Shown in pieces: positions 30,001 to 33,000 of a stretch of 37,224 nt of DNA (positions are counted from its first letter, which is position 1; each line of letters starts with the position of its first letter). Made by a program: the position numbers. This DNA is from a virus (lineage: Duplodnaviria; Heunggongvirae; Uroviricota; Caudoviricetes): IMG/VR virus record IMGVR_UViG_2512047041_000009, positions 1 through 37,224 of that record; one strand, 5' to 3'.

Positions 30001-33000
30001 AGGTGGGATATTTTCTGACCAGACACAAAACACAAAAAGAAACCAAAGTATCAAAAATCACTTGCCACACCTTGATACCTTAGTTACCATAAAACAAAGT
30101 TCGTAACTGAGGTATCATCTCATGATCAATAAAGCTACAACTCTTGACTGTCTCGAAGAACTGAAAAACCTCGGCAGCCTCATTACACTAATAGCAAAAG
30201 CAACACCTGATGCTACGCTCTCTAGCGATATAGAGTCATGCGCAGGACTGGCATGGGATATGACAAATAGCATATCCAGAAAGCTATCGTCAGCAATGCT
30301 TTTACAGAACAAAAATTCTGCAATCAACACCCGTCTTCGCACCCAACGCGAAGCCTGCGGCTTAACAACCGCCGAACTCGCCAGGCTGCTCGATCTCGAT
30401 GAAGAAATTATCATCCAGTGGGAGAGCGGAGAGTATGAACCAACTATCAGTATGCTTATCCCACTGGCAAATATTCTTGGCTGCGATCCGATGTGGCTGT
30501 TAACTGGTGAGGTTACTCCTCCGGAGCAACCAAAAAGTGAGGAGCAGCAACACCATGACGCATCTCAACAAGTTTGCCCCTTATCTCGCGAAGCTCTTCT
30601 ACGGAAGAACCAATACCAATGGTGACATAATCGCCGCTTCGCCCCTCAAGGTACATGCGAACATTTTTATCAATCATTGCGGAAACAGTCTCAATATGAA
30701 AACACTTCTGAGACTCGCTATATAGCAGAACATATAAGTCAGCTGAGGAAACCATGAAAAAGTTCGAAAACATAACTGTTCTCCATGTTGATGACTTTGA
30801 TTATACAAACCCGGAACTTCTCCCGGAGGTTGTAAAGGCAATAGATGTTGCCGATATAGTGATTAGAGAAAAGAGAATTGTCAAAAACAGGCTCGTATGC
30901 ACTTCAGGAGCAATGACAGAAACAACCTCACAGCAAGATAATTACGAAGGCATTTGCCTGGAGCCTGATTCATTTGCGGTAAATGTTTATCATTTATTGC
31001 ATGCAACACAGGTATTACATATGTCCAGTAATCACGAAACGAAAACACTCGGCAGCGAAATTCTGAGTTTTGCATGTGAGTATACAAAAGCTGCTGCCGA
31101 AAAAGAATTAGCGCAATAACAACAAATATGCCCTGAACGTTTATTGCGGTTTTATCGCCGGGGATTGTTACAACCTTAAACCACAGGAGGCTTTATTGTG
31201 ACTTTTATAAAGAATATGGCATCACACAAGACCGCCTGCCTTATTGCACAATACGGTGAAAATTACATGCATATTGCCTGCTTATTTCTGCGTAAAGCAT
31301 ACGGGAGATAATAATGCATCAGAAAACAGCAGAACACGAACAAACCAGAATATTGCTGACCATCAAAAACGGGAAAGTAATATTCATTCGCCATGTTCAT
31401 GACGATGAACTTGTAGGAACTCTTTCAACATTCCTGTTTATTGCAGAAAAGGCAGGATATGACGTTATTGCACCAGCAGATGAAGATGAAGATGAGGAAT
31501 AAATATCATGCAATACGATGAATTCCAGGCTGAAGCAACAGCCAATGGTATACGAACTGGCAGTATGACGATTGATTATCACGACGCCATACGTCGTCTG
31601 GATGCCGGAGAATTCGATACTCCTAATGTGCGAGGTTTACGTATCCTTCAGTGTCTGGCGCAAGCCGACGAAGCAGGATTACTGGGTAAACTTCCGGTTG
31701 AGATGAAGGTTGCTCAGTGGCGATGGTTGTATGTGACGACATTCATCAACGAAGAAGAAGACAAGAACGGCACAATTGATATCCTGAATGAACACGGAAC
31801 AACTGAACACGCCGTGGTATATAACGGGATGTATGGGTTTATGACGATATATCCCGGCCCCATTCGATTTGCCTTACAACAGTATATTGAATGGAATTTA
31901 ATTCAAAAATACGGCGAAACTGAAGGAATGGGAAGAGCGCTGTTTCTTTATCAGAAAATGCTCACTACTTCCCCTGATAAAGGTTTCATTCTTTCAGATA
32001 TGGGTCGAGAAGGGCTTGAAATCCTTCTGGATGAAATTATTAACGAAATGAATACTCATGGCATGCAATCCGAAACAGATATTAAGTAAAAGGGACCACA
32101 TGACCGTTATCGAGTATATCCAGGAAAATCCAGATTGCAGTAGAGAAGATATATCCCTCGCACTTGGAAGAAGCGCAACTTCTATCAGTAATGAATTATC
32201 ACGGTTATTGTGGAATGGGTTAATAGTACGAACTGGAGAAAAAAACAAAATGATTCTGTACTGCGTAAACAATCTGCCGTTTGGATACAGCAATCCCCTA
32301 AGTGTTATGTTCAACCAGTTACTTAAACAGGTAAGAAATGGCAACTGACTCACAACTAACCATAGAAACGGCCCTGAATGTCGGCCTGGCGCTCCTTGGT
32401 TATTTTTACATCGTGTTCTGCAGCGGACGGTGGCTGTCGCTGTTGTTCCTGAAAAAATGGAATAAACGCCGTAAGCAGGATGAACGCCAGAAGGCAATGA
32501 ATGCGTTTTCCGAAGCCTTCGGAATTGACGGCATGGAACCAGGGGATCCAGCTCGCGCAATCAGCAGAGGGGGTGTAGTAATCCTTGTATATCGGAGTGA
32601 AGAGAAAAATGACGATCACAAAACAACGAGTAGAAAAAATCATATATCGCCATGAAATGGGACTGAACAGCGATGTCACTGCCGAAGAGGTTTATGACCT
32701 GGCTGTACTGGCGCTGAATTTATCAAATATCGCAAACCTGAAGCGATACGAGCTTGATATGGATGGTTGCGACTCGTGCGGTCAGGATTGTGGCGCAGAT
32801 ATGACTGAAGATCCTGATGGTGATTATGTCCTGTTTGATGACGTGGTTAAGTTGTTTGAATTTGATACAACCACTCAAAAGTTAGAAATCCCGGCAAAGG
32901 AGGCTGCCAGTGAGCAAGATTGACTATCAGGCACTGCGCGAGGCGGCGGAACAGGCAACGCAAGATGAATGGGTAGCATATATTATGCCGGGTCATAACG

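Follow-up and report, generated by a model that had tools for sequence, protein, structure and literature searches.

In phage lambda, the repressor gene cI is followed by an operator triplet related to OR and by the promoter PL, which reads away from cI into a long, packed, co-directional operon that ends with xis and int and carries Ead/Ea22-type genes in its distal half. The rexAB genes lie between cI and OL/PL and are cotranscribed with cI. A similar plan is found in the virus record IMGVR_UViG_2512047041_000009 (Caudoviricetes), whose full 37,224 nucleotides are called the window below. The subject of this work is a stretch of about 2.9 kb that directly follows its repressor gene (30019-32923), and that a first-pass annotation described as an AT-rich cargo island replacing the usual N and recombination functions, and as a candidate immunity or defence module. 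The reading favoured here, with somewhat better than even confidence, is that this stretch constitutes the promoter-proximal third of a cI-repressed early-left (PL) operon in an N-less lambdoid prophage of the phiP27/Stx1 type (Stx, Shiga toxin), located at mlrA, and that its content is mainly regulatory. This reading builds on gene structure, operators, conservation, domain relationships and synteny, from which we infer repression in the lysogen and all the biochemical roles given below.

Compared with the lambda operon, the window lacks N and the first gene encodes an XRE-type helix-turn-helix (HTH) regulator; recognisable cIII, kil, gam, Red and exo are also missing, as are rexAB-like genes and a terminator between cI and PL. 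Searches of 30122-35631 against Pfam, PHROGs and NCBIfam recognised no N, kil, cIII, Gam, Red/Erf/RecT or exonuclease, in agreement with the first-pass annotation, whose description of the encoded proteins as uncharacterised is also supported; nor did these profiles pick up an N-type antiterminator elsewhere in the window.

Immunity switch, operators and conserved gene order

The switch region comprises the following elements.

28319-29026, minus strand: Rha/Roi-type regulator of 235 residues (Rha235), whose gene is second in the rightward operon and follows the cro-like gene
29023-29250, minus strand: cro-like gene, first gene of the rightward operon
29267-29281 (minus strand), 29300-29314 and 29324-29338: the three OR operators, between the cro-like gene and cI, with half-site TGATAC
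29362-30018, plus strand: LexA-like cI repressor (Pfam Peptidase_S24, 2.9e-22, and HTH_3, 1.7e-14; 'LexA family protein' according to PGAP, the Prokaryotic Genome Annotation Pipeline)
30039-30053, 30073-30087 (minus strand) and 30103-30117: the three OL operators, between the cI stop codon and the first gene

Six related sites of about 15 nucleotides flank cI, three per side (29267-29338 and 30039-30117; an example is GTAACTAAGGTATCA), which bears out the second cluster of operator-like repeats noticed in the first pass, as the three sites of this cluster match the three of OR. With a position weight matrix, they score 14.5-20.8, versus 12.4 for the best site elsewhere in the 37 kb, but the matrix was built from these same six sites and the test is partly circular. 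The cI stop codon is separated from the first gene by 103 bp, which are filled by the three OL operators and a PL-like promoter (TTGCCA-17-TACCAT, 30062-30090) that matches the consensus at 9 of 12 positions, overlaps the middle operator and would read away from cI. Therefore, the flagged genes all lie downstream of OL/PL and not in the rexAB-type slot that is cotranscribed with cI, and the analogy with rexAB proposed earlier is not supported. From 30122 to 37224 there are sixteen genes on the plus strand; thirteen of the junctions overlap or leave at most 33 nucleotides, and the three others measure 78, 84 and 128 nucleotides. In the lysogen, cI bound to the three OL operators would be expected to shut the PL-like promoter, which lies 30-60 nucleotides before the first gene, so that the early-left genes would be expressed once cI has been cleaved in the SOS response, or upon infection.

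Distant relatives show comparable arrangements. One palindromic operator is common to their cro-cI and cI-regulator gaps, and the same architecture, in which OR and OL share an operator, is present in the relatives named L009, L010 and L045. A strong intrinsic terminator directly follows cI in L009 (3545-3676) and L010 (2347-2488), and is itself followed by a consensus TTGACA -35 element for PL; the corresponding interval of the window (30019-30121) has neither, which makes read-through from the repressor promoter PRM more plausible there than in these two relatives. Another relative, L016 (IMG/VR contig 2917762859_000001, 998-2178), has two extra genes between cI and the PL regulator, one for a 260-residue protein and the other for a protein of 135 residues whose HEPN signal is weak (Pfam, 19.7 bits for a cutoff of 22; PADLOC HEPN_IX, 1.9e-3). 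Judging from these positions, the cI-to-regulator interval that is occupied in L016 is the true rexAB-type cargo slot, and it is empty in the window.

The window and the E. coli AR_0013 chromosome share 100% identity across the 4.6 kb that were compared (29000-33600); on this chromosome, the sequence belongs to a lambdoid prophage whose insertion site adjoins mlrA. One strand of this prophage carries HK97-type structural genes, lysis genes, the Q antiterminator (QuuD), DnaB/DnaC-type replication genes, two Rha-family genes and the small cro-like gene, and the opposite strand runs from cI through to xis and int; the whole layout includes the Q antiterminator and no N. At least 80% of 29000-33600 is found in 110 of 5426 complete E. 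coli genomes, and Stx1a-converting phages (LC567819 and others) and phiP27 match it piecewise with 88-89% identity. The order cI, operators, XRE regulator, small genes, 62-residue gene, 193-residue gene, xis and int is kept in phiP27, ASU11, PhiR49_2 and about 20 Stx1a, Stx2a and Stx2d phages; a looser form (cI, regulator, many small genes, a member of the 193-residue family, xis and int) occurs in IMG/VR contigs, Klebsiella phages and phi467. As far as these records can be compared, the early-left genes form a backbone whose order is kept both within the phiP27/Stx1a/Stx2a group and in distant Enterobacterales phages, and not a variable hotspot.

The genes are homologous, and equally ordered, to the leftward open reading frames (ORFs) of phiP27, whose homologues carry the labels L08, L07, L06 and L04 in the ASU11 record, and to those of the Stx1a/Stx2a phages of the LC5678xx series. 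Identities amount to 93% for cI (Stx1a phage L002), 80-95% for the N-terminal part of the regulator, 94% for the 121-residue protein (ASU11), 73-92%, 49-95% and 65-91% for the 37-, 62- and 193-residue proteins, and 100% for xis. The relatives differ from the window in that their regulators have two HTHs where the window has one, and in their distal accessory genes, as expected of mosaic phages. Because all these genes are labelled hypothetical in the phiP27/Stx records, no function can be transferred from them; a literature search found no paper that mentions DUF4752, the RefSeq accessions, the PHROG numbers or PhiR49_2, and a comparative paper on Stx phages contains no functional data on these genes.

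The first genes of the operon and the 62/193 pair

The first five genes after PL are the following.

30122-30625, plus strand: 167-residue regulator, first PL gene, with one XRE HTH (HTH_3, 3.8e-11) and an N-terminal domain
30754-31119, plus strand: 121-residue protein (PHROG 5451 over its full length, 5e-83; PHROG 4587 over its C-terminal half; PHROG 4836, 9e-4)
31198-31311, plus strand: 37-residue basic ORF with a GTG start and AGGAGG 7 nucleotides upstream
31314-31502, plus strand: 62-residue acidic protein (PHROG 340, 3e-22; isoelectric point, pI, of 4.7; C-terminal DEDEDEE)
31508-32089, plus strand: 193-residue acidic protein (PHROG 1515; pI 4.6)

ORF calling recovers every plus-strand ORF listed in the first pass, and the 167-residue protein does have two domains, one XRE HTH and an N-terminal domain. 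Its AlphaFold2 model (pLDDT 72) consists of a two-helix hairpin (residues 7-78), the XRE HTH (about 80-128; residues 72-126 in the Pfam match) and a disordered tail. The regulators of sister phages, with 216-258 residues and two tandem HTHs, end in the same C-terminal tail, and the protein of the window looks like a one-HTH derivative of them; a deletion between the tandem HTH repeats, both of which end in CDPxWLLTG, would explain this form. The N-terminal hairpin of this predicted DNA-binding protein probably serves for oligomerisation.

The 121-residue protein, of which RefSeq (PGAP) calls only the last 68 codons (30913-31119), is related in its C-terminal half to the N-terminal hairpin domain of the sister-phage PL regulators. 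Within a database of 1705 ORFs, phmmer matches it to the N-domain of the regulator of Stx2_95 (L004) with E values of 3.7e-5 and 3.2e-4; this N-domain in turn matches the gene downstream of its own regulator (E 6.5e-7), and the N-domains of the ASU11 and L032 regulators match an 84-residue ORF of L045-48 (about 3e-7). The hairpin domain hence also occurs on its own, in small proteins whose genes come directly after that of the regulator. A regulator accompanied by a stand-alone hairpin protein suggests a logic like that of SinR and SinI, where an XRE regulator is paired with a small protein that copies its oligomerisation domain. This domain is C-terminal in SinR and N-terminal here, and the likeness is one of logic alone, with no claim of family membership. 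The 121-residue protein, which carries a stand-alone copy of the hairpin, could modulate regulators of the sister type by forming mixed oligomers with them, in the manner of SinI and SinR.

The start and ribosome-binding site described earlier for the 37-residue ORF are confirmed, and its relatives keep the ribosome-binding site and start with ATG. No family match was obtained for it in Pfam, PHROGs or NCBIfam; nevertheless, it is probably a real gene, because the substitutions that separate it from the ASU11 copy are biased to third codon positions (10:4:20 at positions 1:2:3). In the AR_0013 sequence, which is identical, PGAP leaves both this ORF and the winged-helix gene described below uncalled, and GenBank records of Stx phages call both. 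The 78-nucleotide gap that precedes the ORF contains the motif ATCGCCGGGGATT (31152-31166), identical in all four diverged relatives that were aligned, in the midst of variable intergenic DNA; it could be a regulatory site. An Rfam search at E <= 1 over 28500-37224 gave no RNA family, hence no known put-like or small RNA element.

The block formed by the 37-, 62- and 193-residue genes, separated by 2 and 5 nucleotides, is present with at least 80% coverage in 202 of 5426 complete E. coli genomes, in every case on the chromosome. The 37-residue ORF also occurs without the other two in 46 complete genomes, with a different gene downstream, which in E. coli FDAARGOS_943 (L052) is cut by IS600. 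Since the ORF is separable, a mosaic junction falls exactly at the boundary between the 37- and 62-residue genes (31190-31314), and the strict unit is the 62/193 pair. The three-gene operon-like unit first proposed is therefore retained in its tightly coupled 62/193 part and loses its first member. All 25 phage records with the 62-residue gene also have the 193-residue gene, whose start lies 8-9 nucleotides past the stop of the former in 24 of them, and the two move together among Stx phages; conversely, 11 of the 36 phage records, like most distant loci, have the 193-residue gene without its partner. The three genes of the window would be translationally coupled.

Several relationships connect this pair to antirepressors of the Rha, Roi and Ant type, such as P22 Rha, HK022 Roi and P22 Ant. 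The 62-residue protein resembles a C-terminal antirepressor module, as it matches antirepressor PHROGs in their C-terminal parts only (PHROG 4792, 4.8e-6, at profile positions 199-240 of 268; PHROG 2379, 4.9e-4), and the phi467 copy shows the same pattern; neither protein of the pair matches the Rha, ORF6N, BRO-N or KilAC families of Pfam. The 193-residue family recurs as a neighbour of antirepressor genes, in several lineages and on either side of them. In about 22 IMG/VR loci, a 232-residue Rha/Roi-type gene homologous to Rha235 ends 3-12 nucleotides upstream of the 193-residue homologue. A Rha/Roi-type gene follows the homologue directly in Klebsiella phage P18-100, an ORF6N antirepressor does so in phi467 and L045-48, and in L007 the homologue is preceded by a Rha+ANT-like gene. 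The P4-like elements found in Kluyvera, Enterobacter and Kosakonia encode a Phage_pRha protein in the same operon as the homologue. Two Rha-type proteins are encoded beside cro in the prophage itself; Rha235 matches the anti-repressor PHROGs 63 and 1726, its C-terminal domain matches PHROG 6610, and Pfam Phage_pRha is reached below threshold. As homologues of Rha235 directly adjoin genes of the 193-residue family in other phages, Rha235 is a likely functional partner of the 193-residue protein. It is most likely, from the synteny, that the 62/193 pair assists or controls an antirepressor-type regulation of the lysis-lysogeny or induction switch, with the 193-residue protein acting as the partner of Rha/Roi/ORF6N regulators.

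The 193-residue protein has a mixed alpha/beta fold, for which no related fold was detected. Relatives retrieved by a word-seeded search are confined to Escherichia and share at least 52% identity; with exhaustive profile searching, 101 cluster representatives are obtained, most of them stand-alone proteins of 190-220 residues. In the family alignment, one Asp is invariant, and several aromatic, Arg and Glu positions are nearly so, as is a His at the C-terminus. At least 90% of the family end in P..P(V/A)xH; the copy of the window (32062-32089) and those nearest to it have SETDIK or PEGQ there instead, without the terminal His, so that a recombination joint at the junction with the next gene may have replaced the conserved C-terminus. 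In L038-L044 (Kluyvera, Enterobacter, Kosakonia, Atlantibacter and Scandinavium; positions about 6001-6627), which are P4-like elements bearing an integrase, the 193-residue homologue lies directly upstream of a P4-alpha-like primase, and a Phage_pRha protein is encoded about 2 kb upstream. A positional analogy with the epsilon, orf151 and alpha primase genes of P4 was considered and discarded, as no homology was found between the 193-residue family and orf151, nor between the upstream 92-residue ORF and epsilon. The C-terminal extension of P0045 was also considered, as a natural fusion with the 62-residue protein, and BLASTP gave no alignment between them.

Distal genes and base composition

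The remaining genes of the flagged stretch, and those that lead from it to the integrase, are given below.

32100-32348, plus strand: 82-residue winged-helix (MarR-like) protein (PHROG 1687, 4.6e-24; Pfam MarR_2 and HTH_24 below threshold)
32338-32655, plus strand: DUF4752 protein, 105 residues, basic (Pfam, 7e-37), with one predicted membrane-spanning segment (KD19 1.67 at residues 12-30)
32609-32923, plus strand: 104-residue very acidic protein, pI 4.1, with CxxCxxxC (PHROG 3126, 4e-64; also PHROG 3323 and 60)
32910-33596 and 33593-34129, plus strand: two Ead/Ea22-like proteins
within 32910-35904, plus strand: proteins of 87, 253 (34405-35166), 80 (DUF4222) and 44 residues
35650-35904, plus strand: excisionase (xis)
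35938-37224, plus strand: integrase (int)

The winged-helix, membrane and acidic Cys-cluster proteins of the first pass thus correspond to PHROG 1687, to a DUF4752 protein with a single hydrophobic segment, and to PHROG 3126 with its CxxCxxxC motif. The small winged-helix protein would be a fourth regulatory element of the operon, and the membrane DUF4752 protein and the acidic Cys protein would open an Ea22-type accessory stretch that runs to xis and int. Its start is marked by the 104-residue gene. The N-termini (MTITK) of the 104- and 253-residue proteins both match PHROG 3323 and PHROG 60, and the two Ea22-like proteins also begin alike, with MS(K/E)I(D/N)YQ(A/S)LRE. Such shared N-termini are typical of module shuffling in an ea/exo-xis-type region. 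In the Stx2a phage Stx2_95 (L004, 5803-7042), the 193-residue gene is followed by a gene for an SPFH/Band-7 protein (Pfam, 1.2e-30) that carries the annotation 'serine protease', and by one for a DUF5406 protein; these stand in place of the winged-helix, DUF4752 and Ea22 genes of the window, in what is the variable part of the operon.

With regard to base composition, the flagged 2.9 kb is indeed AT-rich, as first reported, with a guanine-cytosine (GC) content of 42.9% versus 54.6% in the structural genes and 50.8% in the whole window, which places it among the lowest 5% of 2.9-kb windows. However, no discrete island begins at 30019, because cI (43.4%) and int (43.2%) are equally AT-rich, the 2.9-kb window of lowest GC content begins at 29201, within the immunity region and with cI included, and the AT-richest stretch of the whole 37 kb is located elsewhere, at about 20000-21000 (38.5% GC). 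Comparison of GC contents reveals no compositional break at the cI boundary. The proposal of a cargo island that replaces N and the recombination functions is not supported, the composition being that of cI and int and the gene order being kept in relatives.

The AT-richest stretch contains an OmpC-like porin gene (20331-21473, plus strand), which lies on the strand opposite to its neighbours, between Q (21661-22044, minus strand) and two tRNA genes (19400-19561, minus strand), and over which the GC skew is reversed. The resemblance to a moron or cargo insertion is stronger here than in the flagged 2.9 kb. In Stx phages, the stx genes sit downstream of Q, in the same neighbourhood as this porin.

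Alternative readings and biological significance

The main rival explanation, unlikely but the most credible of the alternatives, is that the small acidic early proteins (62, 193, 121 and 104 residues) form an anti-defence or host-takeover set, made first on induction or infection, which neutralises functions of the host or of a resident prophage, such as restriction, abortive infection or the repressors of other prophages, in parallel to Ral, Gam and Kil of the lambda PL operon. The position of the genes directly downstream of PL agrees with such a role, and so do the low pI values of six of the eight proteins (4.1-5.0), the poly-acidic tail of the 62-residue protein, and the 193-residue protein, which has no known fold relative, as is common among phage inhibitor proteins, and whose family also occurs beside the primase of P4-like satellite elements. 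Yet PHROGs, Pfam and NCBIfam give no match to a named anti-defence family, DNA binding is predicted for three of the eight proteins, and the strongest comparative signal is the link with Rha/Roi/Ant, not with defence systems. It is improbable, in turn, that the genes are an immunity, exclusion or abortive-infection module expressed in the lysogen, by PRM read-through or from a sieB-like internal promoter, to protect the host from other phages. Defence genes are indeed known close to repressor genes, as with rexAB, sieB and BstA, and the flagged genes share with rexAB, sieB and the P22-like BstA this proximity and the strand of the repressor gene; no terminator-like hairpin separates cI from the first gene, a promoter-like site (10/12) is found at 30913-30942, gaps of 78-128 nucleotides precede the 121- and 37-residue genes, and the block is kept in the 202 E. 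coli genomes mentioned above. Nonetheless, the genes lie downstream of three operators and not between cI and PL, searches of Pfam, PHROGs and PADLOC found no homology to rexAB, sieB or BstA, and the gene order is conserved backbone instead of variable cargo. The extra genes of L016 stand upstream of the regulator, between cI and PL, frameshifted copies of the 193-residue gene are common in databases, and promoter-like matches are at chance level. The immunity or defence module suggested in the first pass finds no support in the searches either: PADLOC-DB v2 yields no system-specific component and only generic HTH or winged-helix matches (RmrA, CapH and the HTH portions of CasR/Csa3), and no RexA, RexB, SieB or other named exclusion protein was found in Pfam, PHROGs, NCBIfam or PADLOC, apart from a weak Ren-like match of the winged-helix protein (PHROG 142, 5e-5) that is outscored by the MarR family (4.6e-24). 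A toxin-antitoxin-like addiction pair, in which the gene of a small acidic antitoxin precedes that of a larger toxin, would account for the 5-nucleotide gap between the 62- and 193-residue genes, for the acidic nature of the upstream partner and for the presence of both in 25 of 25 phage records with the 62-residue gene, but it is very hard to sustain, as the putative toxin is itself very acidic (pI 4.6), occurs without its partner in 11 phage records and in most distant homologues, so that pairing is not obligatory, and shows no nuclease, kinase or nucleotidyltransferase-like motif or fold; neither protein matches a known toxin or antitoxin family in Pfam, PHROGs, PADLOC or NCBIfam.

Several observations weigh against the reading of a repressed, mainly regulatory early-left operon. 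The PL-like promoter matches the consensus at only 9 of 12 positions, and promoter-like matches in the region are no more frequent than by chance (12 versus an expectation of 9.3 ± 3.7 from shuffled sequence). No terminator-like hairpin is seen between the cI stop codon and the PL-like promoter or the first gene, and read-through from PRM into the early-left region is possible in the lysogen. Most of the proteins are small and acidic, which fits an anti-defence or host-takeover role equally well. The N-domain of the 167-residue regulator is of a different hairpin subtype and has no significant match to its own 121-residue neighbour in the 1705-ORF database. The loci that show synteny come from few lineages and include near-duplicates, and some 193-residue homologues (e.g., in L009) have no antirepressor-like neighbour. 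The 62-residue family aligns to the C-domain of Rha235 with an hhalign E value of 0.079, and pairwise searches are not significant, so homology is not proven; homology of the 193-residue protein to Rha or to the 62-residue family, suggested by a shared "TPxG + helix" look, was rejected (hhalign E 0.25-0.4). The antirepressor link of the pair consequently rests on synteny and PHROG matches, because direct profile comparisons are not significant.

The early-left operon reading may be extended, tentatively and well short of even confidence, into a single proposal for two parts of the operon. According to it, the 62/193 pair (PHROG 340/1515) would be an unrecognised accessory module of Rha/Roi/ORF6N antirepressors, in which the 193-residue protein acts as a cofactor or gate with a new fold, controlling induction, or cross-induction of co-resident prophages or satellite helpers, and N-less lambdoid phages, many Stx phages included, would have a SinR/SinI-like switch made up of the first PL gene and its hairpin paralogue.

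For the discovery of defence systems, this locus indicates that proximity to cI is insufficient, and that the position relative to OL/PL decides whether a gene occupies the slot expressed in the lysogen. The leads worth following up are limited to the synteny of PHROG 1515 with Rha/Roi/Ant genes and to the stand-alone hairpin paralogues. The phages that share this early-left operon include Stx1a-, Stx2a- and Stx2e-converting phages, and identical or near-identical copies are found in genomes of E. coli ST131 and O157. Should induction be tuned by the regulator together with the hairpin paralogue and the 62/193 pair, these genes would have a bearing on how such Shiga-toxin prophages switch on.

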